The notes beneath the pieces are model-generated. The model saw only the letters and a program-made list of their open reading frames with translations. It made no database searches and was not told where the DNA came from. This document shows, piece by piece, positions 2,064 to 43,930 of a stretch of DNA of 43,930 nt. The stretch comes from an uncultured Eubacteriales bacterium (lineage in GTDB: Bacteria > Bacillota > Clostridia > Oscillospirales > Acutalibacteraceae): the NCBI GenBank assembly GCA_964416045.1, contig CAYQCM010000001.1, positions 1 to 43,930 on the forward strand, written 5' to 3'. Position 1 is the stretch's first letter. Each line of letters starts with the position of its first letter. Both the position numbers and the translations under genes were made by a program.

Positions 2064-2077
2064 TACTTGAGTGCTAA
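2051..2077 (-). promoter_or_regulatory. CIRCE-like inverted repeat (putative HrcA operator) upstream of hsp20
   Basis: ttagcagtg-N9-gagtgctaa. On the hsp20 coding strand it reads TTAGCACTC-N9-CACTGCTAA, versus consensus TTAGCACTC-N9-GAGTGCTAA (7/9 match in the second arm). An extra ttagcac half-site lies at 2038-2044. Confidence 0.65.
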
Positions 2078-2138
2078 TTTTTTTTATTTAGTAATTTATT
2101 ATTTAATTTAAATATTTTATAATATTAAAATGTAAATA

Positions 2139-2166
2139 TTGACAAATTTTATCGTTGTGATAAAAT
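2139..2166 (+). promoter_or_regulatory. Promoter (TTGACA-16-TGaTAAAAT) in front of the decayed gene
   Basis: TTGACA at 2139-2144 and TAAAAT at 2161-2166 preceded by TG (extended -10). GGAGG at 2191-2195. Confidence 0.5.
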
Positions 2167-2202
2167 AATTCTTTAAATTATTAAAAGATTGGAGGCATTA
2201 AA

Positions 2203-2918: not shown

Positions 2919-3040
2919 ATATTTTCTTATAGAAAGCTAAATATAGGGTATTAATTATGTTTGTATTTTTTCTTTTAAAGGATGTAATAATAATATTTGG
3001 AATTAAATGTTATATTTAGTGAATGTGAGATGATCTTTTT

Positions 3041-5716
3041 ATGGATTTTTACAGTTTAGATAAAGAAGTAGTTATGGACAAAATGAATACAGATATATCT
3101 GTTGGTCTCACAGATTCACAGGTTAAAAGTAGAATAAAAGAGTACGGGTATAATGAGTTTGAAAAACAATCTTATGAAAGTATATTTAAAAAAATATTAA
3201 ATCAATTAAAAGATATTTCCGTTATTATATTATTGATAGCCGCAGTATTGTCATTTATATTGGCTATTCGAGAAGGTCATGGCTATATTGAGCCATTTGT
3301 AATCTTAAGTATAGTTATTATAAACGTTGTTTTGGCTATATCTCAGGAGAAAAGCGCTGAAAAAGCGATTGACGCTTTATCAGATCTTAATAGTCCTATG
3401 TGTGTAGTTGTTAGAGATGGCGTTCAGAAGAAAATTAATACCTCTGAAGTAGTTCCCGGGGATATAGTTTTGATTAAAACAGGAGATTTAGTCCCAGCCG
3501 ACGCGCGAATAGTTGAAAGTACGAACCTTTTGGTTGACGAGTCTTCGCTTACGGGTGAAAGTGAATCTTCAGAGAAGGGTTCGGGGACATTATCTGGTAA
3601 AAATATTCCTTTGGGAAATCAGGATAATATGGTTTTTTCGGGGTGTCTTGTTAAAGCAGGACATGCAAAATCCGTCGTTGTAGCTACGGGTATGAAAACC
3701 CAAATGGGTAAAATAGCAGGTTTTTTAAATGATACTCAACAAATTAAGACTCCACTTCAAGATAGATTAAATAAAATTGGTAAAATTATTAGTTTTGTTG
3801 CTATTGTGTCTAGCGTACTTTTATTTATATTTGGGTATATACATGGTCAGGATTTTTGGGGTATGATGCTTTTAGCTATATCTTTAGCTGTTGCAGCCGT
3901 ACCGGAAACTCTTTCTTTAATAGTTACTTTATCTCTTATACAAGGTATAAAAAATCTTGTGGATAAGAATGTTTTAACTAGGAAGTTACCTGCTGTGGAG
4001 AATCTTGGAAGCGTGTCCGTTATATGTTCTGACAAGACCGGTACTATTACTCAAAATAAAATGTCTGTAAAGAAACTGTGGGTTAATAATATGGCTCCTA
4101 TACGTGATAATGATGAATTTTCTTCTGAGTATTTAGATCTTATTAAAAAACTTGTTTTGGCAAGTAATGCTTCTATAAAAACTTTTGAAGATGGAAGTAT
4201 AGAAATTATTGGTGATCCTACGGAAAGCGCTATTTTGAGTTTAGGATTTAGAAAAGACATAGATAAAAATGATTTACTGGAAAAATATATTAAAGTAGGG
4301 GAAATACCTTTTTCTTCTGAAAGAAAAATGATGACTAATATTGTTAAACTTCCTACAAATGAGTATTTATTGGTTTGTAAAGGCGCGTTTGACAGACTTC
4401 CCCTTAATATTCAAACTTTTAATTTTGACGAGGCTAAAAATATACACGATTCTTTTGCAAAAGATTCTCTCAGGATAATAGCTTTGGCAAGTAAAATTAT
4501 AAAAGAACTCCCTGATGATAATAATTTCGAAATATTAGAAAAGGATTTGGATTTTATAGGCTTTGTAGGACTTATTGATCCTCCGAGGCCTGGAGTTATG
4601 TCAGCCATCGAATCTGCGAAACGCGCTGGTATACGTACTGTTATGATTACCGGTGATCATGCCGCTACGGCTAAGGCTATTGCTAAGGAACTTAAGATTA
4701 TGTCTGATGAGGATAAGATATTAACTGGTCAAGAATTATCTATGATTTCCGATGAAGAGCTATATGAAACCATACAGGATTATTCTGTTTTTGCAAGAGT
4801 TTCGCCTGAGGATAAGATACGTATTGTTGAGGCGTGGCAGGAAAATGATGAGGTTGTTGCTATGACTGGCGACGGTGTAAATGATGCTCCTGCACTTAAA
4901 GCCGCTGATGTTGGTATTGCTATGGGTAAAAATGGTACGGAAGTTGCCAAGAGCGCCGCTGACGTAGTATTGACAGACGATAATTTTTCTACAATCGTAC
5001 AAGCCGTTAAAGAAGGGCGTAACGTATACTCTAATATTAGAAAAACTGTTTATTTTTTACTTACGTGCAATTTATCAGAAATTATTATTATGCTTGGCGC
5101 TCAAATAATAGGCTGGAATTCTATTCTTACTCCGGCAATGCTTCTTTTAATTAACGTCCTTGGTGACGGTATTCCGGGAATCCAAATTGCTAAAGAAGTT
5201 TCAAGTTCTAACATTATGAACAGAAAACCTGTTCATCGCGATGAAAGTTTTTTTAGTGGCGGACTTATGGAACTTATAGCATGGCAAACTATAATTTTTT
5301 CGGTAATCGCATGGATAGGATATTATTTTGGCGCTTTTATACAGTTATCTTCAAGTATTATTCCTTCTCATGCGGTAGGACAAGCTATGGCTTTTCTTAT
5401 AATAGGATGGTCTTCAATTATACATGTGTTTAATGTTAGAAGCAGGAGATCTATATTTAAAGTAGGATTTACGAAAAATCCTTTACTTAATGTTAGCACG
5501 ATTTGTATGATAATATTTTTTGTTGTTTTAGTTGGAGTGCCGCAGATAGCAAATGTTTTTGAGTTTTATAAATTGGATATTTGGCACTGGATTATTTGTA
5601 TTTTATTCTCACTTGTCCCTACCGTATTTTCAGAGGTAGAAAAATTTTTCTATCAGTTTAAAGAAAGTCAAAGATATAAGTGTAGAATTATGACTCACTT
5701 TTATAAAGACATATAG
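3041..5716 (+). CDS. P-type (P2, Ca2+-ATPase-like) cation-transporting ATPase
   Basis: 891 aa. Motifs TGES, CSDKTGTITQNKM (phosphorylation site), MITGDH, MTGDGVNDAPALK. N-terminal LTDSQVKSRIKEYGYNEF is typical of YloB/PMCA-like pumps. The TM4 motif reads PETL rather than the usual PEGL, so ion specificity is uncertain. Confidence 0.88.
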   Translation: MDFYSLDKEVVMDKMNTDISVGLTDSQVKSRIKEYGYNEFEKQSYESIFKKILNQLKDISVIILLIAAVLSFILAIREGHGYIEPFVILSIVIINVVLAISQEKSAEKAIDALSDLNSPMCVVVRDGVQKKINTSEVVPGDIVLIKTGDLVPADARIVESTNLLVDESSLTGESESSEKGSGTLSGKNIPLGNQDNMVFSGCLVKAGHAKSVVVATGMKTQMGKIAGFLNDTQQIKTPLQDRLNKIGKIISFVAIVSSVLLFIFGYIHGQDFWGMMLLAISLAVAAVPETLSLIVTLSLIQGIKNLVDKNVLTRKLPAVENLGSVSVICSDKTGTITQNKMSVKKLWVNNMAPIRDNDEFSSEYLDLIKKLVLASNASIKTFEDGSIEIIGDPTESAILSLGFRKDIDKNDLLEKYIKVGEIPFSSERKMMTNIVKLPTNEYLLVCKGAFDRLPLNIQTFNFDEAKNIHDSFAKDSLRIIALASKIIKELPDDNNFEILEKDLDFIGFVGLIDPPRPGVMSAIESAKRAGIRTVMITGDHAATAKAIAKELKIMSDEDKILTGQELSMISDEELYETIQDYSVFARVSPEDKIRIVEAWQENDEVVAMTGDGVNDAPALKAADVGIAMGKNGTEVAKSAADVVLTDDNFSTIVQAVKEGRNVYSNIRKTVYFLLTCNLSEIIIMLGAQIIGWNSILTPAMLLLINVLGDGIPGIQIAKEVSSSNIMNRKPVHRDESFFSGGLMELIAWQTIIFSVIAWIGYYFGAFIQLSSSIIPSHAVGQAMAFLIIGWSSIIHVFNVRSRRSIFKVGFTKNPLLNVSTICMIIFFVVLVGVPQIANVFEFYKLDIWHWIICILFSLVPTVFSEVEKFFYQFKESQRYKCRIMTHFYKDI

Positions 5717-5852: not shown

Positions 5853-7613
5853 ATGACTAATAATATTTCCGTACTTGAATATATAGATAAAATTAAAAAA
5901 CTTGTTAATCCTGATGATATTGTTTGGATAGACGGATCGGAAAACCAACTAGAAATCCTTAGAAAGCAATCTTGCAATAAAGGAGAGCTGATAAAATTAA
6001 ACCAAGAAAAATTGCCGGGATGCTATTTACATCGTACAAAACTAAACGATGTAGCAAGAGTTGAAGACCGTACGTTTATATGCACTGAAACAAAAGATGA
6101 AGCAGGTCCTACAAACAACTGGTGGGACCCTAAAGAAGCTTATGAAAAACTTTTTAGTATTGCTAGAAATAGTTATATAGGTAAAACGATGTATATAATT
6201 CCATATTCTATGGGCCCTATAGGTTCGAAGTTTTCTAAGATAGGAATTGAAATTACTGATTCTATATACGTGGTACTTAATATGGCTATAATGACTAGAG
6301 TTGATAAAGAAGTACTTGAAGTGTTAGGGGATAATAATGACTGGGTTAGAGGACTTCATTGTTCGTGCGATATAGATGAAAAACAAAGATATATTTGTCA
6401 TTTTCCTCAAGACAATACTATTATTTCAGTAAATTCCGGATATGGTGGCAATGTACTTCTGGGTAAAAAATGTTTTGCTTTAAGGATAGCTTCATATCTA
6501 GGGAAAAAAGAAAAATGGATGGCTGAACATATGCTTATTCTTGGTATGCAGAATCCTAAAGGTGAGATAAAGTATATTTGTGCGGCATTTCCATCGGCTT
6601 GTGGAAAAACTAATCTTGCTATGCTTATTCCACCTGAAGTATACAGAAAAAAAGGATATAAGGTTTGGTGCGTTGGTGATGACATTGCATGGCTTAGAAA
6701 AGGAAAGGATGGCAGACTTTGGGCCGTAAATCCTGAAAATGGTTTTTTTGGCGTTGCCCCGGGTACGAATTCCAGGTCAAATCCTAATGCTTTAGCTACT
6801 ACTACGCATGATACTATTTTTACAAACGTAGTCCAAAATTTAGATGATAATACAGTATGGTGGGAAGGTCTTGATAAAAATCCTCCTTCTAATGCCGTTA
6901 ATTGGAAAGGGGAAAAATGGAATGGTAGAATTTCCGAGGAAAAAGGAGCTCATCCTAACAGCCGATTTACTTCTCCTGCTAAAAACTGTCCGTGTATAAG
7001 CAGTGAGTTTGAAAATCCCAATGGAGTTCCTATTTCAGCTATTATTTTTGGAGGAAGAAGAGCTCAAACTATACCTTTAGTTTATGAAGCTTTTGATTGG
7101 AATAGCGGAGTATTTGCTGGGTCTATAATGTCCTCAGAGACAACCGCGGCGGCGGCCGGTAAAGTTGGTGTGCTTAGGCATGATCCAATGGCTATGATAC
7201 CTTTTTGTGGATATGATATGGGAAAATATTTTGGTCATTGGATTGAAATGGGAAAAGAATTAGGGGATAAAGCTCCTAAAATATTTAACGTTAACTGGTT
7301 TAGGACAGATAAAAATGGCAACTTTATTTGGCCTGGATTTGGAGAAAATTTGAGAGTACTTGAATGGATTTTAAAAAGATGTGAAAATGAGATAGAAGCT
7401 CGAAAAACACCTATTGGCTATTTACCATTTTCTAAGGATATTAATCTTGAGGGACTAGATTTAATTTCCTCTGATTTGGATTCTCTTTTGGAAGTTGACA
7501 GTGGTTTATGGAAAAAAGAAATAGAGAACATAAGATCTTTTTATAAGAAGTTTGGGGATACTCTTCCGAAAGAATTGATAGAAAATTTGGATAAAATTGA
7601 TAAATTTTTATAA
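5853..7613 (+). CDS. pckG: Phosphoenolpyruvate carboxykinase (GTP-dependent)
   Basis: 586 aa. GTP-PEPCK signatures: FPSACGKTN (kinase-1a/P-loop), WMAEHMLILG, GDDIAWL, NPENGFFGVAPGT, FGGRR, NWF. Confidence 0.93.
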   Translation: MTNNISVLEYIDKIKKLVNPDDIVWIDGSENQLEILRKQSCNKGELIKLNQEKLPGCYLHRTKLNDVARVEDRTFICTETKDEAGPTNNWWDPKEAYEKLFSIARNSYIGKTMYIIPYSMGPIGSKFSKIGIEITDSIYVVLNMAIMTRVDKEVLEVLGDNNDWVRGLHCSCDIDEKQRYICHFPQDNTIISVNSGYGGNVLLGKKCFALRIASYLGKKEKWMAEHMLILGMQNPKGEIKYICAAFPSACGKTNLAMLIPPEVYRKKGYKVWCVGDDIAWLRKGKDGRLWAVNPENGFFGVAPGTNSRSNPNALATTTHDTIFTNVVQNLDDNTVWWEGLDKNPPSNAVNWKGEKWNGRISEEKGAHPNSRFTSPAKNCPCISSEFENPNGVPISAIIFGGRRAQTIPLVYEAFDWNSGVFAGSIMSSETTAAAAGKVGVLRHDPMAMIPFCGYDMGKYFGHWIEMGKELGDKAPKIFNVNWFRTDKNGNFIWPGFGENLRVLEWILKRCENEIEARKTPIGYLPFSKDINLEGLDLISSDLDSLLEVDSGLWKKEIENIRSFYKKFGDTLPKELIENLDKIDKFL

Positions 7614-10518: not shown

Positions 10519-11082
10519 TCATCGTAATTCTTTAATGGTAAATCTCCCTGTTTTAATATCTTGTACCCACTGTACTATTTTGCTTCTGGATATATTAGGA
10601 TGAATTTTGATATACTCTATAATTGCGTCTTTACTTTTAATATGAGATCGTTTTTTAGTACCGTTGGGTATACTGCTTAATAAATATTGTTCTAAATAGG
10701 TTGCATTTTTAGGCTGTATTTTTGGCGCTACCTTTGTAGAACGTATTTGAGATTGTTTTGTTAATGATTTTATTACAAGTACTAGTTTTGGACGTTTGGG
10801 CTTTAAATAACATTTTTTGATCATCTCGATTGTTTTTTGTGTAAATTGTTTTTTGTCTCTATCTGAGGTGAATTTGCATTTTTTTAATAATAATGATATT
10901 TTTTTAATTATTATTTTAGCTTCATCGGTAGTTCTAAATACGAGTGATCCTATAAAGTCCATGGTTAATTCCCAGAACTCATTACCTAGTTGAGGGAAAT
11001 CTTTATTTATTGATTCACATATGTCTTTAATTGTAGAAATATTTTCTTGATCTTGCCGGGCGATTTTAATGTATTGTTTCAT
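10519..11082 (-). CDS. Hypothetical Lys-rich protein (possibly the 3' part of a frameshifted ~241-codon gene)
   Basis: 187-aa ORF with no motif I recognise. The frame stays open upstream to a TGA at about 11175, and an abutting ORF lies in another frame (see 11156-11245). Confidence 0.5.
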   Translation of the reverse strand: MKQYIKIARQDQENISTIKDICESINKDFPQLGNEFWELTMDFIGSLVFRTTDEAKIIIKKISLLLKKCKFTSDRDKKQFTQKTIEMIKKCYLKPKRPKLVLVIKSLTKQSQIRSTKVAPKIQPKNATYLEQYLLSSIPNGTKKRSHIKSKDAIIEYIKIHPNISRSKIVQWVQDIKTGRFTIKELR

Positions 11083-11155
11083 TATATTAATATTTTCTTT
11101 TTTTACTTTTTGGAATTGTATTATAAATTCATTATGTGCGTCTAAATATGTTTTT

Positions 11156-11245
11156 CTACAGACAAGGATATGGGGTCAAATTAATTTCTATATCTGGTCT
11201 TTTACTAAACTTACAATCTTCATATGTGTGTAATTGATCTATCAT
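11156..11245 (-). CDS. 29-codon ORF (MIDQLHTYEDCKFSKRPDIEINLTPYPCL), possible 5' part of the downstream gene separated by a 1-nt frameshift
   Basis: The ATG lies 4 nt after the stop of the upstream ORF. Removing one G from the G4 run at 11172-11175 fuses it in frame to the 10519-11082 ORF. Confidence 0.3.
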   Translation of the reverse strand: MIDQLHTYEDCKFSKRPDIEINLTPYPCL

Positions 11246-11248
11246 ATC

Positions 11249-11509
11249 TTATTTTATATTTGATGGTAAATTTTCTTGAAGGACCATTTGCGTTAATTCA
11301 AATACCATGGAGGGTTTCATAGCTTTACGTTTCCTTATATTGTTTTTAGAACTTTTTATTGTTTCAGTAAATTCTTTGGCCGTCATGTTTTCTACATTGT
11401 GATAATTATTTAGGAACGCATATTCAGGTTCATAATTTGGAATGTCTTTTTGTAATTTATTTCTTAATGAATTAAACTCCGAAAATGTCAAATTGATCAC
11501 CTCTCTCAT
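11249..11509 (-). CDS. Hypothetical 86-aa protein
   Basis: First ORF of a three-ORF minus-strand unit. No recognisable motif and no SD sequence. A promoter -10 lies about 9 nt upstream of the ATG. Confidence 0.5.
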   Translation of the reverse strand: MREVINLTFSEFNSLRNKLQKDIPNYEPEYAFLNNYHNVENMTAKEFTETIKSSKNNIRKRKAMKPSMVFELTQMVLQENLPSNIK

Positions 11510-11518
11510 TATAATAAT

Positions 11519-11548
11519 ATTATAATTCTTTTTTCATATAAATGTCAA
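11519..11548 (-). promoter_or_regulatory. Promoter TTGACA-18-TATAAT on minus strand, -10 ending 9 nt before the ATG at 11509
   Basis: Minus strand reads TTGACA (11548->11543), an 18-nt spacer, TATAAT (11524->11519), then attattata and ATG. Confidence 0.55.
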
Positions 11549-11690
11549 TATGTATAGTTATATTGTGTAAATGTTGCATAAACAAAAAGTAAATATATAT
11601 ATACATGTCTTAAAATATTTTATTTTTTTCTTATATTTTATTTAAGGAATAATTTTAATATATTTGGTAATATAATAGTATAAATCAGTA

Positions 11691-11719
11691 TTGACTTTTA
11701 ATAATAGTTGTCAGATAAT
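11691..11719 (+). promoter_or_regulatory. Promoter of the PTS operon (TTGACT-17-GATAAT)
   Basis: TTGACT at 11691-11696, 17-nt spacer, GATAAT at 11714-11719. GGAAGGA RBS before ATG 11776. Confidence 0.6.
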
Positions 11720-11775
11720 ACGAAGGTGTAAACTAAATATTTATTTCTTATTGTATTAATGGAAGGAAAACGTTA

Positions 11776-12069
11776 ATGAAAGAATTTAATTATGTAATAG
11801 GCAGCGAAAATGGAATACATGCAAGACCCGCTGGAATGCTTGTTAAAAAAGCTTTGACTTATACATCTAAAATTACGGTTTTTAAAGGTGAAGACTCTGT
11901 TAGTTTAAAAAGTTTGTTTGATTTATTAAGTTTCGGAATTAAGCAAAATGATGAAATTCGTATAGTAATAGAAGGTGAAGATGAGTCTGAGGCAGAAGCT
12001 GGTATAAAAAATTTTTTAGATGAAAATTTTAATAGGAGTCATGTTGCTAATGACAGTATTGAAGGGTAA
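11776..12069 (+). CDS. ptsH: Phosphocarrier protein HPr
   Basis: GIHARPAG (His15 site) and VSLKSLFDLLSFG (Ser46 region). 97 aa. Confidence 0.92.
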   Translation: MKEFNYVIGSENGIHARPAGMLVKKALTYTSKITVFKGEDSVSLKSLFDLLSFGIKQNDEIRIVIEGEDESEAEAGIKNFLDENFNRSHVANDSIEG

Positions 12070-24681: not shown

Positions 24682-25032
24682 TTATTTTTGATTGAGTCCG
24701 AAACTTACTGATAAGGCTTGATTTACTCTGTTCATACAAAGATTATCTACACAGCCTGTTTTTTCTTTAAGTCTTTTTTTGTCGATGGTACGAATTTGTT
24801 CTAAAAGTACTACGGAGTCTTTTGCTAAACCACTTTTTTGTGTACCGATATGTATATGTGTTGGTAGTTTAGACTTCGTTTGTTGACTTGTTATTGCAGC
24901 TGCTATTACTGTTGGACTAAATTTATTTCCCACATCATTTTGTACTATAAGCACCGGTCTTACTCCTCCTTGTTCGGATCCTGTTACTGGACTTAGATCA
25001 GCGTAAAAAATATCTCCTCTTCTTATACTCAT
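24682..25032 (-). CDS. mazF: MazF/PemK-family endoribonuclease toxin (EndoA/NdoA-like)
   Basis: 116 aa, collinear with B. subtilis EndoA as I remember it: [45 protein letters not shown]...KLPTH...[17 protein letters not shown]. Confidence 0.9.
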
Positions 25033-35098: not shown

Positions 35099-37900
35099 AT
35101 GTCTACAAACAACTACAACGATACTCTTAATTTGCCGAAAACCGACTTTCCCATGAAAGCTAATTTACCGGAAAAGGAAGCCGAGTTCTTTAAACAGTTT
35201 GAAAATAATGATATTTATAATAAGCTTATGTCTCATAATAAGGATAAGCCTGTATATGTATTGCATGATGGTCCGCCTTACGCAAACGGAGATATTCATT
35301 TAGGTCATGCACTTAATAAAATACTTAAAGATTTTGTTGTAAGATTTAAAAATATTTCCGGGTATAGATCTCCGTATATTCCTGGATGGGATACTCATGG
35401 ATTACCTACAGAACTTAAAGCTAGAAAAAAAGCTAATATTAAAAATTCTCAGGATATTAGTGATTCTCAGCTGAGAAAAATTTGCAAGGAATTCGCAATG
35501 GACTACGTAAATACTCAAAGAGAGCAGTTTAAGAGACTTGGAATACTTGGCAATTGGGATCAGCCTTATATTACTCTCCAGCCTGAATTTGAGGCTAAAC
35601 AGATAGAAGTTTTTACAAAGATGGCGTCTGAGAAAGCTATATATAGAGGTCTTAAACCGGTTTATTGGTGCCCTAGTTGTGAAACGGCTTTGGCAGAGGC
35701 CGAGATAGAGTATAGTGATGATGACTGTCAATCAATATATGTAAAATTTAAGGTTAAAGAAGATAATGGAATATTTTCTAATTTAAATATTGATACTTCG
35801 AATGTTTATTTTGTAATTTGGACTACCACTACTTGGACTTTGCCGGGAAATGTTGCTATATGTTTAGGTCCTGATATTGATTACTCTATAGTAAAATATA
35901 ATAGTGAATATTACATTATTGCAAAAGACCTTTGTAATGAAAGTATGAAAGCTGCTGGAATAGAAGAATATGAAGTGATTTCAACCGTTAAAGGTTCCAA
36001 ATTTGAAGGTATTAAAACATCCCATCCATTTTTAGATAGAGATTCTATTGTAATTTTGGGAGATCACGTAACCACCGCAAGCGGTACAGGATGCGTTCAT
36101 ACTGCTCCCGGTCATGGTGTAGAAGATTTTGAAGTTTGTTTGAAATATGATAATATTCCTATTGTGGTTCCGGTAAATTCGAGGGGTGTCTTGACGGAAG
36201 AAGCCGGACGGTTTTGCGGTATGCATATTTCTAAAGCAAATGATGAGATTAGTTCTTATTTAAGCGAAAAAGGACTTTTATTTTCTACTAAAAAAATTAG
36301 TCACTCATATCCACACTGTTGGAGATGTAAAAAATCGATTATCTTCAGAGCAACTAAACAATGGTTTTGTTCGATAGAAAAGTTTAAAGATAAGGCTATG
36401 AAGGAAATTAATAGCATACAATGGATACCTAAATGGGGCAAAGATAGAATGCAAGCGATGATTACCGAAAGAAAAGATTGGTGTATTTCACGTCAGAGAA
36501 AATGGGGAGTACCTATACCAATATTTTTTTGTGATAATTGCTCAGAGCCTTTAATTGATGAAAGCGTTATGAAGAATGTATCTAAGATTTTCGGAAAAGA
36601 AGGTTCAGATTCTTGGTATATAAATGAAGCTGAGTATTTTATACCTGAAGATACTAAATGCAAAAATTGTGGACATAAACATTTTTTAAAAGAAACAGAT
36701 ATTATGGATGTATGGTTTGATTCGGGTGTTACAAACGAAGTGGTTTGTAAAAAAGAAGGTATGAAATGGCCGGCTGATCTTTATTTAGAGGGTGCTGATC
36801 AATATAGAGGGTGGTTTCAGTCATCTCTTTTGACCTCTATTGCATTTAATGGTAAGGCGCCTTATAAAACAGTTGTTACGCATGGTTGGGTTGTTGACGA
36901 AGAAGGTAAAAAACAATCTAAATCTGTTGGAAACGGAGTTAAACCGAGTGAAATAATAAACAGGTATGGAGCTGACGTATTTAGACTGTGGGTAGCTTCT
37001 TCCGACTATCATACTGATGTTAAAATTTCTCATGACATTCTAAAACAGTTATGTGAGTCTTACAGAAAAATAAGAAATACAGCTAGATTTATAATAAGTA
37101 ACCTTTATGATTTCGATCCAAATAAAATTTCTTATAAAGTAAATGATCTTTTTGATATAGATAAATATATGCTTTATAAAGTTTACAAGTTAAATCAAGA
37201 TATAATTGATGCGTATAATAATTTTGAATTCCATGAGGTTTTCCACAGTATACAAAAGTTTTGTATTGTAGATTTGTCTAACTTTTACTTGGATATTTTA
37301 AAAGATAGGTTATATGTTTATAAATCAGATAGTATTCAAAGAAGATCTGCTCAGTTTACTATTTATAATATACTATCCGTTCTTGTTAAACTTTTGGCTC
37401 CAATACTTGCGTATACTTCTGAGGAAATATGGAAATATATGCCGCATAAAAGTGATGAGAATGTTGAAAGTGTTCTTTTGAATTCTATTTGTGTTGATGA
37501 GGATATTGAAAAAAGTGTAAGTAAAGAGCTTATTGAAAGGTTTAATAAAATTCAGATACTCAAAAATGATATTAGAAAAATTTTAGAAAAAGCTAGAAAA
37601 GATAAAATTATAGGTTCCTCTTTAGAGGCTAAAGTTACAATTTATAGCAGTGATCTAAATGCTTATAAATTTTTATGTGATAATGCAGGTGAAATTAAAG
37701 ATATACTAATTGTATCTGAAGTAGAGATTTTAAGCACAGGAATGGGAGAACATGAATTAGATAAAAATTCAAATATATCTGTGACTGTTCTTAGAGTAGG
37801 CGGCAAAAAATGTGAAAGATGCTGGATGTACTCAAATACGGTTGGAGAAGATGTTCAAAATCCTGATCTATGTGATAGATGTGCAAACATTTTAAAATAG
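35099..37900 (+). CDS. ileS: Isoleucine--tRNA ligase
   Basis: 933 aa. PPYANGDIHLGH (HIGH), KQSKSVGN (KMSKS), CP1 editing domain, C-terminal Zn finger CERCW...CDRC. Confidence 0.96.
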   Translation: MSTNNYNDTLNLPKTDFPMKANLPEKEAEFFKQFENNDIYNKLMSHNKDKPVYVLHDGPPYANGDIHLGHALNKILKDFVVRFKNISGYRSPYIPGWDTHGLPTELKARKKANIKNSQDISDSQLRKICKEFAMDYVNTQREQFKRLGILGNWDQPYITLQPEFEAKQIEVFTKMASEKAIYRGLKPVYWCPSCETALAEAEIEYSDDDCQSIYVKFKVKEDNGIFSNLNIDTSNVYFVIWTTTTWTLPGNVAICLGPDIDYSIVKYNSEYYIIAKDLCNESMKAAGIEEYEVISTVKGSKFEGIKTSHPFLDRDSIVILGDHVTTASGTGCVHTAPGHGVEDFEVCLKYDNIPIVVPVNSRGVLTEEAGRFCGMHISKANDEISSYLSEKGLLFSTKKISHSYPHCWRCKKSIIFRATKQWFCSIEKFKDKAMKEINSIQWIPKWGKDRMQAMITERKDWCISRQRKWGVPIPIFFCDNCSEPLIDESVMKNVSKIFGKEGSDSWYINEAEYFIPEDTKCKNCGHKHFLKETDIMDVWFDSGVTNEVVCKKEGMKWPADLYLEGADQYRGWFQSSLLTSIAFNGKAPYKTVVTHGWVVDEEGKKQSKSVGNGVKPSEIINRYGADVFRLWVASSDYHTDVKISHDILKQLCESYRKIRNTARFIISNLYDFDPNKISYKVNDLFDIDKYMLYKVYKLNQDIIDAYNNFEFHEVFHSIQKFCIVDLSNFYLDILKDRLYVYKSDSIQRRSAQFTIYNILSVLVKLLAPILAYTSEEIWKYMPHKSDENVESVLLNSICVDEDIEKSVSKELIERFNKIQILKNDIRKILEKARKDKIIGSSLEAKVTIYSSDLNAYKFLCDNAGEIKDILIVSEVEILSTGMGEHELDKNSNISVTVLRVGGKKCERCWMYSNTVGEDVQNPDLCDRCANILK

Positions 37901-37972
37901 TTTTAAAATTTTATTGCGGCTTGTCTTTTAAAGGCGGCCGCTATATTTATATTTTGTCGGAGGGGATTATAT

Positions 37973-38410
37973 TTGAAAAAGTTATTTATAATATTGTCTA
38001 CTTTTTTTGTGTTAGTAGATCAGGTGTTAAAAATTATTTTTTTAAAAATTTTAGATAAAAATATTGTGGTCATTCCAAACCTGTTGGAACTAGGCATTGT
38101 ACGTAACAGAGGAGCCGCTTTTGGAATACTTCAAAATAGTAGATGGATCTTTATTTTATTTACTATACTTGCAATTTTTTGTTTTTTTTATATAATATTT
38201 ATTAAAGCAGTTGATAATAAACTGTTTATAATATCTTCTATATTTGTTGTAGGTGGTGGTATTTTTATAGGATTTGTTATTGATTATATAAAATTATCAT
38301 TTTTTCCCCCTGTCTTTAATTTTGCAGATATATGTATTTCAGTTGGGGGAGCGCTTTTAATAGTCTATGTGTATTTGGACCAGGGAAATAAGGTATCATC
38401 AAATGGATAA
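37973..38410 (+). CDS. lspA: Signal peptidase II (LspA)-like protein, short variant lacking the GNxxDR block
   Basis: TTG start after GGAGGGG. VRNRGAAFG, VID and FNFAD motifs are present. The stretch between GGG and VID is about 6-7 residues shorter than canonical LspA. Confidence 0.75.
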   Translation: MKKLFIILSTFFVLVDQVLKIIFLKILDKNIVVIPNLLELGIVRNRGAAFGILQNSRWIFILFTILAIFCFFYIIFIKAVDNKLFIISSIFVVGGGIFIGFVIDYIKLSFFPPVFNFADICISVGGALLIVYVYLDQGNKVSSNG

Positions 38411-39323
38411 AATTATTATTGATGTAAAAGATGATATTTCTGATAAGAGAGTAGATGTTGCTGTTTGCCAGAGTATTGAAAATTTATCCAGAAGTTTTAC
38501 GCATAAACTTATTAAAGATGGTTTTATAACAGTTAATGAGAAAAACATAGATAAAAATTATATATTGAAATGTGGAGATGTAATCGAGGTATTTTTAAAA
38601 GACCCTCAACCTTCGGAAATATTACCTGAAGATATTTCTTTAGATATAGTTTATGAAGATGATGATCTTTTAGTAGTTAATAAAGAAAAAGGAATGGTTG
38701 TACATCCTGCCCCGGGAAATTATACGTCTACATTGGTAAATGCTTTACTAAATCACTGCGGAGATTCTCTTTCAGGTATAAATGGTGTTATTAGGCCAGG
38801 CATTGTTCATAGAATAGATAAAGATACAAGTGGTCTTTTGATAGTAGCTAAAAATGATTTTTCTCATAGTCTTCTTGCCGAACAAATTAAAGAACATAGC
38901 TTTAGAAGAGAATATGAAGCGATAGTTCATGGAAATGTTTCGAGTGATTCCGGTACTATTGATGCTCCTATAGGAAGAAATTCTATAGACAGAAAAAAAA
39001 TGTGCGTAACGGATAAATGCTCAAAACGTGCTATTACTTATTATAAAGTTATAAAAAGGTATGAAAAGTATACTCATGTTAGACTGAAACTTGAAACAGG
39101 TAGAACCCACCAGATAAGGGTACATATGTCTTATATTGGACATCCATTAGTTGGTGACATTGTCTATGGACCGAGTAAAAACAAAAATTTCAATTTATTT
39201 CAGGGACAGTGTTTACATGCTAGAGTTATAGGATTTATTCATCCGAGAAACAATAGGTACTTAGAGTTTACAAGTGATTTACCAAAATATTTTAAGGATT
39301 ATATTAATTTTTTGAAAGGTTAA
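38403..39323 (+). CDS. rluD: RluA/RluD-family 23S rRNA pseudouridine synthase
   Basis: Start ATG 38403 (overlaps the lspA stop). N-terminal S4 domain, catalytic HRIDKDTSGLL, TGRTHQIRVH. Confidence 0.9.
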   Translation: MDKIIIDVKDDISDKRVDVAVCQSIENLSRSFTHKLIKDGFITVNEKNIDKNYILKCGDVIEVFLKDPQPSEILPEDISLDIVYEDDDLLVVNKEKGMVVHPAPGNYTSTLVNALLNHCGDSLSGINGVIRPGIVHRIDKDTSGLLIVAKNDFSHSLLAEQIKEHSFRREYEAIVHGNVSSDSGTIDAPIGRNSIDRKKMCVTDKCSKRAITYYKVIKRYEKYTHVRLKLETGRTHQIRVHMSYIGHPLVGDIVYGPSKNKNFNLFQGQCLHARVIGFIHPRNNRYLEFTSDLPKYFKDYINFLKG

Positions 39324-39388
39324 CCTTTTTGAGATTATATATATAAATTTTATTATAGTTAGTTTTTATTGATAGGTAGGTGAAAAAA

Positions 39389-41485
39389 ATGGGAAAAAAT
39401 CAAAAAGATGTTCCATATAATAATAGGGAAATTAGTTGGATGGATTTTAATTATCGGGTTCTTGAAGAGGCTATAGACAAAAATAATCCTATTATGGAAA
39501 GAGTTAAATTTTTGTCCATTTCATCTTCGAATCTTGATGAATTTTTTATGGTTAGAGTTGCTGGAATAATGGAAAAAATTGAAATTAGATCTACGGATAA
39601 AGACTCATCCGGATTAAAACCTAAGCAACTTTTATCTGCTCTTACCAAAAAAATACATGATTTTTATGAAAAACAGTATCTTTGTTTTCATAAAATGATT
39701 CTTCCGGATCTTAAAAAAGATGGTATAGAGATTTTAAAGTGGAAAGAATTGAATAAAGATCAGGTAAAATTTACTGATAATTTTTTTAATATGATAATTT
39801 TTCCTGTTTTAACTCCTCTGGCAATAGATCAATCAAGACCATTCCCTTTTTTAGCTAATAAGACTTTAAATATAGCGGTAGAGTTAGATGGCGGTAAGTA
39901 TGAATCTACTTTTGGAATAGTACAGGTTCCTGCAATTCTTCCAAGATTTATAAAACTTCCAAGTAAAAATTCTAAAAGCTATATTTTGCTTGAAGACATT
40001 ATAATACGTCAATTACCCAAGCTTTTTGAAATATATGAAATAAAATCAAGTTGTACTTTTCGAATTACTAGAGATTCTGATTTAGAAATAGATGAAGATG
40101 CGGAAGATCTTTTAATGGAGATTGAAAAGTCTATAAAAAAACGTAGGCATGGTGCATTAGTTAGACTTGAAATAGGTAATACAAAAAGTGAAACTATTAA
40201 AAATTTTATTATAGATATACTTGACGCAAGTAAAAAAGAAATATATATATCTAAAGGACCACTCGATTTTACTTTTCTTTCTAAATTCTATGATGAAATT
40301 AATGATAAAAAGTTAAAATATAAAGATGTTCAGCCGGTAAATCCGCCAGTTGGATTCTTAAATTATGATGATATTTTTAAATCTATATCTGAAAAAGACA
40401 AAATAGTTTATCATCCATTTGAAAGTTTTGATTGTGTAATACAATTTGTGCAAAAAGCGGCGGAAGATAAAAACGTTCTTGCGATAAAACAGACTCTATA
40501 CAGAGTAAGCGGAAACTCTCCTATAATTGCTGCACTTATTAAAGCTGCTGAAAACGGTAAACAGGTTACCGTACTTGTAGAATTAAAGGCGCGTTTTGAC
40601 GAAGAAAAAAATATAGTTTGGGCTAAAAAGTTGGAAAAAGCGGGATGCCATGTTATATATGGAGTCCCTGGATTAAAAACTCATTGCAAAGTTTTACTTG
40701 TAGTAAGACGAGAAAAAGATGTAATAAAAAGGTATATACATCTGAGTACTGGCAATTATAATGATACAACGGCTAAATACTATACTGATATTGGATATTT
40801 TACTTGTAAAGAAAGTTTTGGTACGGATGTATCTTCCTTATTTAATTTTATTACCGGATATTCTTTACATCCAAATTATAAGAAAATTGTCGTTGCCCCG
40901 AAGAATATGAGAGATTTCTTTATTGATATGGTGAAAAGAGAAATTGCTAATTCAAAGAAAAAATTAAAAAATGGAATAATAATAAAGGTAAATTCTTTGG
41001 TGGATTATAAAATTATTGAGATGCTTTATAAGGCTTCTTGTGAGGGTGTAAAAATTAAGCTGATAGTCAGGGGAGTGTGTTGTCTAGTTCCGGGAGTTAA
41101 AGGTATAAGTGAAAATATTGAAGTTAGAAGTATTGTTGGAAGATTTCTTGAACATAGCCGTATTTTTTATTTTGAAAACGGTGGAAATCCAAAATTATAC
41201 ATGAGCAGCGCGGATCTTATGCCTAGAAATCTGGATAAAAGAATAGAACTTGCTTTTCCAGTTGAAGATACTGATCTTAAAAATAAATATATTGAGGTTT
41301 TGAACATTATTCTTAAAGATAATTTTAATTCTAGAATTCAAAATTCAGATACTATTTATTTGAAAGAAAATATAAAAGGTAAGAAAATTTTTAATAGCCA
41401 AATGGAACTATTTAAGATTTTTAAAGAATATAAAGTTGATCAGGTAGAAAAATGTAAGTTAGAAAGTTCTCAAAAGTTTAAATAG
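39389..41485 (+). CDS. ppk: Polyphosphate kinase 1
   Basis: YNNREISWMDFNYRVLEEA N-terminus and two PLD-like HKD-type regions (LKTHCKVLLV, FLEHSRIFYF). Alternative GTG start at 39380. Confidence 0.93.
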   Translation: MGKNQKDVPYNNREISWMDFNYRVLEEAIDKNNPIMERVKFLSISSSNLDEFFMVRVAGIMEKIEIRSTDKDSSGLKPKQLLSALTKKIHDFYEKQYLCFHKMILPDLKKDGIEILKWKELNKDQVKFTDNFFNMIIFPVLTPLAIDQSRPFPFLANKTLNIAVELDGGKYESTFGIVQVPAILPRFIKLPSKNSKSYILLEDIIIRQLPKLFEIYEIKSSCTFRITRDSDLEIDEDAEDLLMEIEKSIKKRRHGALVRLEIGNTKSETIKNFIIDILDASKKEIYISKGPLDFTFLSKFYDEINDKKLKYKDVQPVNPPVGFLNYDDIFKSISEKDKIVYHPFESFDCVIQFVQKAAEDKNVLAIKQTLYRVSGNSPIIAALIKAAENGKQVTVLVELKARFDEEKNIVWAKKLEKAGCHVIYGVPGLKTHCKVLLVVRREKDVIKRYIHLSTGNYNDTTAKYYTDIGYFTCKESFGTDVSSLFNFITGYSLHPNYKKIVVAPKNMRDFFIDMVKREIANSKKKLKNGIIIKVNSLVDYKIIEMLYKASCEGVKIKLIVRGVCCLVPGVKGISENIEVRSIVGRFLEHSRIFYFENGGNPKLYMSSADLMPRNLDKRIELAFPVEDTDLKNKYIEVLNIILKDNFNSRIQNSDTIYLKENIKGKKIFNSQMELFKIFKEYKVDQVEKCKLESSQKFK

Positions 41486-41510
41486 ATTATTTAGGTTAGG
41501 AGATGATACT

Positions 41511-42596
41511 TTGTCTATAAAAAAAGTGGGGATATTAACCAGCGGAGGGGACTGTCAAGGACTTAATGCTGCTATTAGAGGGGTATGTAAATCTCTTTAT
41601 GGGATATATGGTGAAGAGAATATAGAGATATACGGTATCGTTGATGGGTATAGGGGACTTATAAATTGTGAGTACAGACTCCTTAAAAGAGAAGAATTTT
41701 CAGGTATCTTAAATCTTGGTGGAACTATACTTGGTACTTCAAGGGAACCGTTTAAAAAGATTAGAGATATTGAAAAAGATAATATAGATAAACTTGGTTT
41801 TATGAAAGAGACTTATAAGAAACTTAAATTAGATTGTCTTGTGATATTGGGAGGAAACGGTACGCATAAAACAGCAAATCTTTTAAGCAGTGAAGGTCTT
41901 AATGTAATTACGCTTCCCAAGACTATTGACAATGATTTATTCGGAACAGACGTAACTTTTGGTTTTCATAGTGCCGTAGGGATAGCTTCTCAGGTTATTG
42001 ACTGTATACACACTACCGCTACATCTCATGGAAGAATATTTATTATTGAAATTATGGGGAATAAGGTAGGTTGGCTGACTTTATACTCTGGTATTGCAAG
42101 TGGGGCAGATATTATTTTAATTCCGGAGATACCTTATAATTTGAATTCTATTATAAAGTCGCTTGAAAACAGGTCGAAACAAGGTAAGAAATTTTCTATT
42201 ATTGCAATGGCTGAAGGGTCTATTCCCAGTGAGTACAAAGATTTATCTAAGAGTGAAAGAAAAGAAAAGCTTAAGAAAAACAATTGTTCAACCATTTCAT
42301 ATAAGTTAGCAGGTGACCTCGAAAAAGCTGTTGGACAAGAAATAAGGGTTACAGTTCCGGGTCATTTCCAAAGAGGAGGAGATCCTTGTCCTTACGATAG
42401 AATATTAGCCACAAGGTTTGGGTCTTTTGCTGCTAAGTTATTTAGTGAAAGTAGATATGGAAATATGGTTTCACTTCAGAATGAAAGGATAGTAGCTGTA
42501 CCTTTAAAGGATGTAGCCGGGAAGTTAAAAACGGTTCCTGAAGATAGTCAAATTGTATTGTCTGCTAGAAGAATAGGTACAAATTTTGGCGACTGA
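41511..42596 (+). CDS. pfkA: 6-phosphofructokinase (PFK-A superfamily; phosphoryl donor not certain)
   Basis: TTG start after AGGAG. GILTSGGDCQGLNAAIRG, ILGGNGTH, LPKTIDNDL, MGNKVGW, GHFQRGG. Confidence 0.88.
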   Translation: MSIKKVGILTSGGDCQGLNAAIRGVCKSLYGIYGEENIEIYGIVDGYRGLINCEYRLLKREEFSGILNLGGTILGTSREPFKKIRDIEKDNIDKLGFMKETYKKLKLDCLVILGGNGTHKTANLLSSEGLNVITLPKTIDNDLFGTDVTFGFHSAVGIASQVIDCIHTTATSHGRIFIIEIMGNKVGWLTLYSGIASGADIILIPEIPYNLNSIIKSLENRSKQGKKFSIIAMAEGSIPSEYKDLSKSERKEKLKKNNCSTISYKLAGDLEKAVGQEIRVTVPGHFQRGGDPCPYDRILATRFGSFAAKLFSESRYGNMVSLQNERIVAVPLKDVAGKLKTVPEDSQIVLSARRIGTNFGD

Positions 42597-42645: not shown

Positions 42646-42921
42646 ATGGAAAACGATAAAATTGTAGATTTATTTCATGATGAAGAATTCTTAAAGAAGT
42701 TTAGTAATTTGAAAGATGAAAATGAAGCTATTGAACTTTTTAAGAATAATGGCGCTGAAATTACTTATGAAGAATTTGATGAGTTGTATACTTTATGCGA
42801 TGAATACGTAAATAACGGAATGACAGTTTCTGATGAAAAGCTCGATATGATAGCTGCTGGTTTGAATGTTAGCAGAGATGTCATAATAGGATTTAAAGAG
42901 GCTATGGAATTTAGACTTTAA
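42646..42921 (+). CDS. Nif11-like leader domain peptide precursor with 19-aa C-terminal core (paralog C)
   Basis: 91 aa. IVDLFHDEEFLKKFSNLKDENEAIELFKNNGAEITYEEFDEL...VSDEKLDMIAAG followed by LNVSRDVIIGFKEAMEFRL. Aligns by eye with paralogs A and B. Confidence 0.6.
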   Translation: MENDKIVDLFHDEEFLKKFSNLKDENEAIELFKNNGAEITYEEFDELYTLCDEYVNNGMTVSDEKLDMIAAGLNVSRDVIIGFKEAMEFRL

Positions 42922-42937
42922 AAAAATTAAATGCTAC

Positions 42938-42966
42938 TTGATTTTTTATTAAGTTTTAGTTATAAT
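42938..42966 (+). promoter_or_regulatory. Promoter of the Myb-like gene (TTGATT-17-TATAAT)
   Basis: TTGATT at 42938-42943, 17-nt spacer, TATAAT at 42961-42966. AGGAG at 42995-42999. Confidence 0.6.
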
Positions 42967-43008
42967 CAGAAATAAATTTAATAAAAATTATCATAGGAGA
43001 AGCAAACA

Positions 43009-43659
43009 ATGAAAAAATTTTTTTCAACATTTTTAAGTTTAGTAATATTTAGTTTTTTAACTATACCCAATTTTTTTGCGGGTAATCATTCTAGAAGAAG
43101 GCAAAAATTTACGCCAGAAGAAGATAAAAGATTAATTGAACTTGTAAATGAACACGGGGAATCAAACTGGGTGTTAATAGCTTCACTCATGGAAAATCGA
43201 ACTGTAAGGCAGTGCAGAGAAAGATGGAAACATTATCTTAGTGTAAGTGGAACTGGAAATAAACCATTTAGTCCAGAGGAAGATGAAGTAATTTTAAAAA
43301 AAGTTGAAGAATTGGGACACAAATGGACAAAAATAGCTGCATTTTTGCCTGGCAGATCAGATCTTAATATTAAAAATAGGTGGTTTAATTTTATAAGAAG
43401 GCATTGTAATAGTATTGGATTACGTCACGCTCCAATTAGGAGATGTAATATTTTACCCGAGCAAAATCCAGAGCAAGTTCATGTTGCTTCCACATTACAA
43501 TTAGAGTTTAATCAAGAAGGCGTTGTTCCAGAACCATTGGAACCTAATCAGGAATCAGGCCTTAATAGTTTTGAAACGCCTCCGTTTTTTGAAGATGATA
43601 ATATATTTGGATTAGAGGATGATTTCGATAGAGATAAATGGGATTTTTATCCTTTTTAA
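43009..43659 (+). CDS. Signal-peptide-bearing protein with tandem eukaryote-type Myb (R2R3) DNA-binding repeats and acidic C-terminal tail
   Basis: 216 aa. MKKFFSTFLSLVIFSFLTIPNFFA/G signal. R2-like KFTPEEDKRLIELVNEHGESNWVLIASLMENRTVRQCRERWKHYL. R3-like PFSPEEDEVILKKVEELGHKWTKIAAFLPGRSDLNIKNRWFNFIRR. Acidic/aromatic tail FFEDDNIFGLEDDFDRDKWDFYPF. Confidence 0.8.
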   Translation: MKKFFSTFLSLVIFSFLTIPNFFAGNHSRRRQKFTPEEDKRLIELVNEHGESNWVLIASLMENRTVRQCRERWKHYLSVSGTGNKPFSPEEDEVILKKVEELGHKWTKIAAFLPGRSDLNIKNRWFNFIRRHCNSIGLRHAPIRRCNILPEQNPEQVHVASTLQLEFNQEGVVPEPLEPNQESGLNSFETPPFFEDDNIFGLEDDFDRDKWDFYPF

Positions 43660-43684
43660 TAATGATTGATATTTTGAAGTTATA

Positions 43685-43716
43685 AAATGAAAGGTAGATT
43701 ATTCTACCTTTCATTT
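43685..43716. terminator. Bidirectional hairpin terminator between the Myb-like gene and spoIIE
   Basis: Perfect 14-bp stem aaatgaaaggtaga/tctacctttcattt with loop ttat. The spoIIE stop codon lies in the 3' arm. Confidence 0.8.
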
Positions 43717-43930
43717 TGTATTTTTATATAATTTTATAGTAATTGCAGTAATATCATCATCATGAGTTCTTTTTCGTTTTGAAATAGTCTTATTTATTAT
43801 GCTTTTTGTGAATCTATCTATATCCTTTCCGTCATATTCTCTTAATTCTTCCTCTACCCATTTGTCGCCGGTGTCTGTTACACCGTCTGATAACATTAAA
43901 ATCATATCATTATTATCTAGGTCTATGCTA
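43711..43930 (-). CDS. spoIIE: Stage II sporulation protein E (PP2C phosphatase), C-terminal fragment; gene continues beyond the window
   Basis: The frame is open to the window edge (IDLDNNDMILMLSDGVTD...DDDITAITIKLY). This matches the C-terminal PP2C motifs of SpoIIE-type phosphatases. Confidence 0.75.
   Translation of the reverse strand, partial: SIDLDNNDMILMLSDGVTDTGDKWVEEELREYDGKDIDRFTKSIINKTISKRKRTHDDDITAITIKLYKNTK

Follow-up and report, generated by a model that had tools for sequence, protein, structure and literature searches.

How does a gut clostridium come to carry a eukaryote-type transcription-factor domain behind what looks like a bacterial export signal, and what might such a protein be for? 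The question is raised by one gene near the end of a 43,930-nucleotide stretch of DNA (hereafter the window; GenBank assembly GCA_964416045.1, contig CAYQCM010000001.1) from an uncultured Eubacteriales bacterium of the Acutalibacteraceae. The open reading frame (ORF) lies at 43009..43659 on the forward strand (coordinates include the stop) and encodes 216 amino acids, comprising a signal segment, an R2R3 Myb domain, a linker and an acidic tail; an earlier sequence-only reading had singled it out, and the ORF and four-part layout quoted there are present exactly. We consider, with a probability of roughly 0.55, that the product of this gene is an R2R3 Myb of eukaryotic derivation which mimics a transcription factor and is exported by the bacterium, and that the protein is probably secreted to interfere with the gene expression of a protist host.

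The product of the ORF is a Myb protein, with a Pfam match far above chance. PF00249 (Myb_DNA-binding) matches in two stretches (E = 1.5e-33; score 115 bits, cutoff 24.4), in agreement with the two tandem Myb/SANT repeats read from the sequence earlier, and PF13921 matches the same protein at 3.3e-22. NCBIfam, a collection of models for proteins of bacteria and archaea, gave no family for it. A sequence search of the PDB returned Trichomonas vaginalis Myb2 (3osf, 9e-29) at the top, then c-Myb (1h88, 2e-27), tvMyb1 (2k9n, 4e-25) and tvMyb3 (3zqc), so that the likeness to the Trichomonas Mybs pointed out in the earlier reading is borne out by the top matches. Repeat R2, including its basic N-arm (RQKF...RQCRERWKHYL; residues 31-77, 43099..43239, forward strand), was delimited from Pfam, the structural model described below and alignment with R2 of tvMyb2 and c-Myb, and repeat R3 (KPFSPEED...GRSDLNIKNRWFNFIRR; residues 85-131, 43261..43401, forward strand) from the second PF00249 stretch, the model and Foldseek. 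No further Myb copies are present within the window.

The AlphaFold2 model, for which a 33-sequence alignment served as input, predicts an N-terminal helix (residues 2-18), two three-helix repeats over residues 36-135 with a predicted local distance difference test score (pLDDT) of 90-98, and disorder over residues 136-216 (pLDDT about 50). The helices of R2 are placed at 36-49, 54-60 and 66-77 (pLDDT 94-98) and those of R3 at 89-102, 106-110 and 118-135 (pLDDT 90-97). Compared with the PDB by Foldseek, the model matches DNA-bound tvMyb2 first (3osf_A; template modelling (TM) score 0.86, root-mean-square deviation 2.0 Å, 45% identity), followed by c-Myb-DNA complexes at TM 0.77-0.84 (1h8a_C, TM 0.84). 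The aromatic core consists of F34-W54-W73 and F87-W106-W125, with a spacing of about 19 residues. R67/E71 in R2 and K122/N123 in R3 align with the recognition-helix positions of c-Myb and tvMyb2, where the base-contacting residues of c-Myb are K128/E132 in R2 and K182/N183 in R3. In some orthologues, N123 is replaced by His or Cys and W125 by Phe.

Downstream of the repeats lies a variable linker (residues 132-190, 43402..43578, forward strand), which is predicted to be disordered (pLDDT 45-59) and is poorly conserved among orthologues, with indels. It is followed by an acidic/aromatic C-terminal motif, PPFFEDDNIFGLEDDFDRDKWDFYPF (residues 191-216, 43579..43656, forward strand), which resembles an activation domain. 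The last 26 residues hold nine Asp/Glu and eight Phe/Trp/Tyr, as expected from the tail described in the sequence-only reading; the tail is kept in four clade members (P0001-P0004), and that of P0005 is wholly different. If cleaved after Ala24, the mature form would have 192 amino acids and 22.7 kDa, and its Myb core has a pI of 9.7.

The first 24 residues (MKKFFSTFLSLVIFSFLTIPNFFA; 43009..43080, forward strand) resemble a Sec-type signal peptide, with MKK as n-region, an h-region of 16 residues, Pro20, and a c-region ending in Ala24. The hydrophobic core that follows MKK, FFSTFLSLVIFSFLTI, reaches a Kyte-Doolittle 12-mer maximum of 2.56 at residue 8. A comparable N-terminal segment is present in all eight members of the clade (P0001-P0007 and P0186; Kyte-Doolittle 2.5-2.95), whereas 51 other hits, mostly of eukaryotic type, are mostly below 1.3, and only two of them are borderline (P0042 and P0014). 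The classical Sec-type N-terminus proposed earlier is thus matched by a predicted signal-peptide architecture that runs through the clade and is absent from the eukaryotic relatives. The putative cleavage site of the window protein, FFA24/G25 (the slash marks the cut), has Ala at -1 and is preceded by Pro20, but carries an atypical Phe at -3; the motifs of its orthologues and paralogues are canonical, namely SFA/G (P0004 and P0186), AFA/G (L007), VFA/Q (L016) and VQA/A (P0270). The charges flanking the hydrophobic segment (+2 on the N-terminal side, net +1 on the C-terminal side) favor an N-in/C-out orientation. Because of these flanking charges, the short h-region, Pro20 and the canonical motifs in the orthologues and paralogues, a cleaved signal is favored over an anchor.

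Where did the Myb domain come from? The named matches in a large protein database are Mybs from Tritrichomonas foetus, Tritrichomonas musculus, Histomonas meleagridis and T. vaginalis, with 45-60% identity over the Myb core, and a few of the matches are from other protists. These parabasalid Mybs are likewise small, possess the same basic arm (RRRMKF, RVRAKF, QRRNKF), and often have an acidic/aromatic end, e.g., '...FGKDDFDIFTLF' or '...YDDVDFFSF'. As these eukaryotic Mybs share both the basic arm and the acidic tail, the 'NLS' (nuclear localization signal) and 'activation tail' came along with the Myb domain. The stretch RRRQK (residues 29-33), formerly read as resembling an NLS, is instead the basic N-arm of R2 that the parabasalid homologues have in common, although this arm may double as an NLS. 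A tree built on the 103-residue Myb core shows a monophyletic window clade (86% for P0001-P0006) that falls inside the parabasalid-type radiation, far from c-Myb, and Mybs of the other bacterial orders that are dispersed among those of eukaryotes. A eukaryotic, parabasalid-type origin of the Myb domain is therefore supported by its sequence relationships, and so is the earlier suggestion of a horizontally acquired eukaryotic Myb fitted with a putative export signal, as the relatives are parabasalid Mybs rather than bacterial helix-turn-helix proteins. Judged from the sequences, the N-terminal hydrophobic segment is the sole bacterial addition to an otherwise complete parabasalid-type Myb.

The gene resides in a conserved bacterial neighborhood. 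There are seven full-length relatives (P0002-P0007 and P0186; 81-50% identity), all with the N-terminal segment, and wherever the DNA context of relatives was retrievable, synteny was assessed. The gene order DivIVA-IleRS-LspA-RluD-PPK-PFK-orf91-Myb, with spoIIE convergent behind it, recurs unchanged in no fewer than five independent assemblies, comprising Logan contigs from four runs and the NCBI metagenome-assembled genomes (MAGs) GCA_948762645.1 (= MGBC139389; MGBC stands for Mouse Gastrointestinal Bacteria Catalogue) and GCA_951800105.1. The other genes of the window form an ordinary clostridial core set (SOD, PEPCK, PTS, Ddl, ArgRS, L21-Prp-Obg, MiaB, MutS/L, MiaA, SepF, DivIVA, and others). 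No mobile-element or island signature was seen, and no relatives of the Myb protein that would point to carriage by phages or viruses were found in IMG/VR.

The bacterial expression signals that had been read from the sequence were all found. A sigma-70-like promoter, TTGATT-17-TATAAT (42938..42966, forward strand), was detected by a scanner with 10 of 12 matches; this is no more than agreement with the consensus, as shuffled sequences of this AT-rich region are not poorer in promoter-like sites. The ATG is preceded, at a distance of 9 nt, by the Shine-Dalgarno sequence AGGAG (42995..42999, forward strand), and an intrinsic-terminator hairpin with 18 pairs, a loop of 4 and a T-run (43681..43720, forward strand) separates the convergent Myb and spoIIE genes and is the sole one in the scanned region, where 0.3 would be expected. 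The excess of G+C that had been suspected in the Myb gene from short stretches is not real, as its GC content (0.324), GC content at third codon positions (0.189) and index resembling the codon adaptation index (0.705) all match those of the 37 other ORFs in the window (0.306 ± 0.035, 0.207 ± 0.027, and 0.705 ± 0.038, respectively). A compositional or codon anomaly as a sign of recent transfer was therefore rejected, and because its composition is fully ameliorated, the Myb gene must have been resident for long.

The Myb gene evolves much faster than its neighbors. By the Nei-Gojobori method on four orthologues, the ratio of nonsynonymous to synonymous substitution rates (dN/dS) is 0.50-1.23 for the whole Myb gene, compared with 0.02-0.06 for PFK, 0.11-0.14 for IleRS and 0.09-0.41 for orf91, and the nonsynonymous:synonymous ratio of the Myb gene differs from that of PFK with p = 1e-14. 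For the Myb domain by itself, dN/dS is 0.19-0.35 at deeper divergence and 1.5-2.0 on the window's own branch; positive selection on that branch is not claimed, since these values are not significant (p = 0.07-0.22). The change extends to the R3 recognition helix, where the window has IKNRW, close relatives have IKHRF or IKCRF, and MGBC139389 has VKNRF, so that the aligned base-contacting Asn varies among orthologues (N/H/C). Such fast evolution would fit an effector under changing constraint and would also fit partial relaxation. As a separate observation in this region (window 35099-42596 against L001, L005 and L020), the synonymous divergence (dS) between P0004 and P0005 is 0.07 in IleRS and 0.72 in PFK, 3.6 kb apart, and this mosaic of dS between strains suggests recombination between lineages.

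If the protein acts on a protist, the identity of the bacterium is of importance. The window IleRS has 95% and 84% identity to a pair of proteins from metagenomes, of which one bears the label Oscillospiraceae, and 66% to Candidatus Paraimprobicoccus trichonymphae (complete genome, 1,276,969 bp), while all other matches are at 59-64%. In a neighbor-joining tree of the 120 best matches plus the window sequence (121 sequences, 929 columns), an exclusive clade of the window, the two metagenomic proteins (P0059 and P0060) and Ca. Paraimprobicoccus trichonymphae was recovered in every one of 50 bootstraps. From this single gene, the window bacterium can be placed as the sister of Ca. Paraimprobicoccus trichonymphae and as a member of a small-genome clade of the Acutalibacteraceae. 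Ca. Paraimprobicoccus (RsTa-C01) belongs to a group of three clostridial symbionts that live inside the cells of termite-gut parabasalids, described as 'putative energy parasites', with genomes of 1.0-1.3 Mb and 27-33% GC that encode an ATP/ADP translocase, and its host is the parabasalid Trichonympha (Takahashi et al., 2023; PMC10579323). The endosymbiotic Clostridia were reported to carry 42 eukaryote-like genes, three encoding Myb_DNA-binding proteins among them, with signal peptides in at least 20; the three are RsTa-C01_0762, 0774 and 0775 of Supplementary Table S10, and the closest relative of 0774 and 0775 was Trichonympha agilis, 0762 being left out of that test (PMC10579323). The idea of an effector thus gains an ecological basis from the placement of the window bacterium as sister to a documented intracellular parabasalid symbiont. 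The IleRS region of Ca. Paraimprobicoccus is not syntenic downstream; it is rearranged and has no Myb, and common ancestry of the window Myb and the RsTa-C01 Mybs at the IleRS locus looks unlikely from this comparison. A weak match to CIS_tube (contractile injection system) lies near the IleRS of Ca. Paraimprobicoccus, together with Spo0A (L021 19837-20472), and extracellular contractile injection systems have been reported from related Acutalibacteraceae symbionts.

Is the architecture peculiar to this lineage? In one scan of a species-representative genome collection, which used two peptide patterns, 14 bacterial loci with R2R3 Mybs were found, a number that is a lower bound. They comprise the MGBC139389 orthologue and a second, divergent paralogue in that MAG, one locus in the mouse-gut Eubacteriales MGBC110686, three Puniceicoccales MAGs, six Holosporales loci, one Rickettsiales MAG and one Lachnospiraceae MAG. 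The N-terminus is signal-peptide-like in all of them (e.g., MKINLRKSSKKLCVLLFLCLTAITFVPTAFA/GKDG, MKKIFSLVFIFLCGLSMCIFSVFA/QYN, and MRKIALFISIFLGIMTGAIGEG) except for the Lachnospiraceae locus and an apparently truncated Puniceicoccales one. A spacer of 0 to 110 residues precedes the Myb repeats in these bacterial signal-Mybs, and most of them end in an acidic/aromatic sequence. Two more paralogous signal-Myb families occur in mouse-gut Eubacteriales MAGs. A profile search with the bacterial signal-Mybs was dominated by the generic Myb core and gave mostly eukaryotic matches (Phytophthora and others), and it added three signal-Mybs (P0186, P0270, and P0278). The genes flanking the other bacterial Myb loci encode ribosomal protein S2, an OmpR-type regulator, BioY, PBP, LepB, TrcR and a bacterial sugar transferase, and in one case the flank is a second tandem signal-Myb; as the flanking genes are bacterial, these loci are not mis-binned protist contigs. 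Holosporales are obligately host-associated, mainly with protists, and one clade of them comes from termite gut, and the verrucomicrobial 'Nucleococcus cluster' consists of intranuclear and cytoplasmic symbionts of termite-gut flagellates, of which the Puniceicoccales signal-Myb MAGs are candidate members.

Several of these loci are of interest in themselves. An 8-kb contig of MAG GCA_052847495.1 (L033 2235-7734; GC 0.37) carries three Myb genes beside SLT and PAS-HisKA genes, two with signal-like N-termini and one with four repeats and without a signal, together with a 112-aa ORF of 'SAQLAF(R/G)RMRDS'-like repeats. In a Puniceicoccales MAG (L011 7861-8391 and 9259-10008), tandem signal-Myb paralogues have near-identical signals (MKLQR[VI]IG[IF]...), which indicates local duplication. 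MGBC139389 contains a second, divergent signal-Myb family (L016 10001-10597; P0188, and P0278 elsewhere) ending in ISCDPLP[TS][CI]F, and a nearby ORF of 129 aa (6793-7182) ends in ICEDPLPVLW, so these ends may represent a shared C-terminal motif. The Lachnospiraceae Myb (L010 3393-4295; GC 0.48) has nothing signal-like at its N-terminus and is extended differently at its C-terminus; it may come from a mis-binned contig, unless it is a cytoplasmic variant.

We hypothesize that the window protein would act as follows. SecYEG would export it, and signal peptidase I would cut near Ala24/Gly25. From a monoderm living inside or attached to a trichomonad, for which Tritrichomonas is the candidate host in mice, the 22.7-kDa protein would be released directly into the host cell. 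Its small size, below the passive-diffusion limit, would let it pass the nuclear pores, its DNA-binding core being basic, and its nuclear targets would be Myb recognition elements, bound via R67/E71 in R2 and K122/N123 in R3. The acidic/aromatic tail would then activate genes, or the protein would compete with the very large Myb repertoire of the host, and host transcription would shift in favor of the bacterium. All of these steps, from secretion and cleavage through nuclear entry to the binding of DNA and transactivation, are inferred. In a wider and more tentative form of this hypothesis, which we regard as possible though somewhat doubtful, proteins with a signal, a Myb domain and an acidic tail would be convergent, cross-phylum 'trans-kingdom transcription factors', with Clostridia, Holosporales, Rickettsiales and Puniceicoccales each having captured Myb genes of parabasalid hosts and provided them with an export signal; the secreted proteins would reprogram the very large transcription network that Mybs drive in the protist, which the window bacterium would do in mice inside Tritrichomonas.

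Several points weigh against an exported mimic. Two features around the putative cleavage site, Phe at -3 and the cluster RRR at +5 to +7 of the mature end, are unfavorable for signal peptidase I and Sec in model bacteria. The backbone of the Myb tree is without support (4%), and therefore we name no donor species and give no count of transfers. The dN/dS of the Myb gene is not significantly above 1 (p = 0.07-0.3), and a value near 1 on recent branches would also result from relaxed constraint. For the window bacterium, an intracellular lifestyle is only putative; the window and the syntenic loci keep PFK, PEPCK, PTS, PPK, MutS/L and sporulation genes (SpoIIE, YunB), and since these are retained, the lineage may be less genome-reduced than the termite endosymbionts. 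No tlc gene for an ATP/ADP translocase lies within the 44-kb window. Finally, the runs with a T. musculus Myb (P0038; 10 of at least 24 places, by exact match) do not overlap with the four runs that contain the bacterial gene, a comparison that is uninformative.

Other explanations have to be weighed against the same evidence. The N-terminal segment could be an uncleaved signal anchor that tethers the Myb domain to the bacterial membrane, either facing outward as a surface binder of DNA (extracellular DNA, adhesion) or facing inward as a membrane-tethered regulator of bacterial genes. The non-canonical Phe at -3, the closeness of RRRQK behind the hydrophobic segment and the single continuous helix modeled over residues 2-18 would suit such an anchor, but an h-region of only about 16 residues with Pro20 and a small residue at -1 has the geometry of a signal peptide, the orthologues and paralogues have canonical S/A/V-F-A/G or Q sites, and homologues in other phyla have 25-110 residues between signal and Myb, as secreted proteins would. 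The flanking charges moreover place the C-terminus outside, and a bacterial regulator would leave unexplained why a eukaryote-type acidic tail is retained and why the proteins are restricted to lineages known or suspected to be eukaryote-associated. We therefore consider an anchor unlikely. A secreted Myb mimic might instead be aimed at the mouse gut epithelium, as a commensal nucleomodulin acting on c-Myb/MYBL-type sites. Orthologues do come from the mouse gut catalogue, and the protein has the R2R3 recognition residues in common with c-Myb, and its model superposes on the c-Myb-DNA complexes at the TM scores given above. However, no route into epithelial cells is evident for a Sec-secreted protein of a luminal bacterium, the sequence affinity is parabasalid rather than metazoan, the sister lineage lives inside a parabasalid, and termite-gut-type MAGs from orders of protist symbionts encode analogous proteins, all of which makes an epithelial target improbable.

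Could the gene be without any function, a decaying passenger from ingested or host protist DNA that drifts under relaxed constraint? This would be consistent with a whole-gene dN/dS of about 0.8-1.2 between close strains, with the replaced tail of P0005, and with the substitution of the recognition-helix Asn and Trp in some orthologues. It would be at odds with an ORF, start, ribosome-binding site and terminator that are intact in all eight variants at up to about 50% amino-acid divergence, with the low dN/dS of the Myb domain at deeper divergence and the invariance of its structural core residues, with the conserved signal segment, with independent retention and duplication in several lineages, and with the long residence indicated by the fully ameliorated composition. 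A passenger is thus quite unlikely to account for the gene. The sequence-only reading had raised an assembly chimera as an alternative; such a chimera, or a bacterial contig to which contaminating protist DNA became attached, has no finding in its favor and is effectively refuted: the junctions on both sides are alike in at least five contigs from independent samples and pipelines (Logan and NCBI MAGs), and the gene has a bacterial ribosome-binding site, a promoter-like site, a terminator and the codon usage of its neighbors. The computational checks that the sequence-only reading had named as able to refute its idea were all carried out or approximated, and the idea withstood each of them. 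The exported, eukaryote-derived Myb mimic remains our preferred explanation.

Further features of the window provide context. Immediately upstream of the Myb gene, orf91 (42646..42921, forward strand) encodes an acidic protein of 91 aa without a Pfam family or any sign of a functional link to the Myb gene; being conserved in every syntenic locus and under purifying selection according to the dN/dS given above, it is a real gene. Downstream, the 3' end of a spoIIE-like gene, taken from the ORF list, is cut by the window end (43711..43930, reverse strand), and a full spoIIE gene of 781 aa with SpoIIE_N and SpoIIE domains is found at the same position in three of the syntenic loci (L001-L003). 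The opposite end (1-566) opens with the final 150 nt of a 23S rRNA of bacterial type, behind which come tRNA-Lys(ctt), tRNA-Glu(ctc) and tRNA-Ser(cga), and no 5S rRNA was detected downstream of the 23S. A MazF/PemK toxin gene lies at 24682-25032 on the reverse strand. Two segments of about 1 kb each (1958-3041 and 11082-12020) have no ORF of at least 100 aa and a low GC content of 0.23-0.25; Rfam gave nothing at the gathering threshold in either, and they could be pseudogenes or regulatory RNA.

Compared with known systems, the closest precedent is found in the sister lineage. The Mybs of Ca. Paraimprobicoccus trichonymphae RsTa-C01 likewise are Myb_DNA-binding proteins with parabasalid nearest relatives, and many of the eukaryote-like genes of that genome have Sec or lipoprotein signals and were proposed to encode proteins secreted to manipulate the protist host (PMC10579323). 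They differ in lying at another locus without synteny, and the window lineage comes from mouse gut and looks less reduced, with its sporulation and glycolysis genes. The RsTa-C01 Mybs appear in the supplementary table only, two without a signal peptide and one with a lipoprotein signal, with no analysis of architecture, evolution or function (PMC10579323). T. vaginalis Myb1/2/3 (2k9n, 3osf/3osg, 3zqc) are alike in their small size, in the Phe that replaces the first Trp of the repeats and in RQCR(E/D)RW plus IKNRW, but they are the nuclear proteins of the protist itself and have no signal peptide, whereas the window protein is bacterially encoded, with bacterial expression signals and a putative export segment. 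In concept, it resembles the TAL effectors of Xanthomonas and Ralstonia, which are sequence-specific transcription factors of eukaryotic type with an acidic activation domain that work in the host nucleus (PMC7819608); these have a bacterial repeat fold, type III secretion and defined NLSs, in contrast to an acquired Myb fold, a predicted Sec signal and no implicated injection system in the case of the window protein. The eukaryotic-like effectors of Legionella and Chlamydiae also use domains acquired from protist hosts for molecular mimicry, but they are delivered by the Dot/Icm type IV or by type III secretion systems, from diderm bacteria.

What is new here is less than the sequence-only reading had assumed. 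The idea that protist-endosymbiotic Clostridia have Mybs among eukaryote-like proteins that often carry Sec signals is already known, from one table entry and one sentence on the sister lineage (PMC10579323). What appears to be new is the addition of a signal segment alone to a complete parabasalid Myb, the recurrence of this architecture across phyla, and the raised evolutionary rate. Among effectors with eukaryotic-like domains, the searchable literature contains no characterized Myb-type example, and no Myb-type effector is listed in a review of nucleomodulins (PMC7819608). In the literature searched, nothing specific was found on the function of a bacterial Myb effector or on Tritrichomonas endosymbionts in mice.

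The searchable literature contains no characterized bacterial effector that is made from the Myb domain of a eukaryotic transcription factor. The window locus offers a tractable case: the putative mature form has only 192 residues, its structural homologues tvMyb1-3 have known DNA sites, and its bearer is a mammalian-gut relative of a termite-protist endosymbiont. The signal-Myb architecture, found across four bacterial orders, moreover provides a ready comparative dataset. If the protein is indeed secreted into trichomonads, symbionts would hijack host transcription using the host's own factors, and an arms race or a change of target specificity would account for the fast evolution of the recognition helices. 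Uncultured mouse-gut Clostridia of this kind would then likely be protist-associated, which would matter for how the effects of Tritrichomonas in mouse colonies are interpreted. Should Tritrichomonas, which itself shapes mucosal immunity, be the host, these bacteria would add a hidden bacterial layer to the interaction between the protist and its own host.

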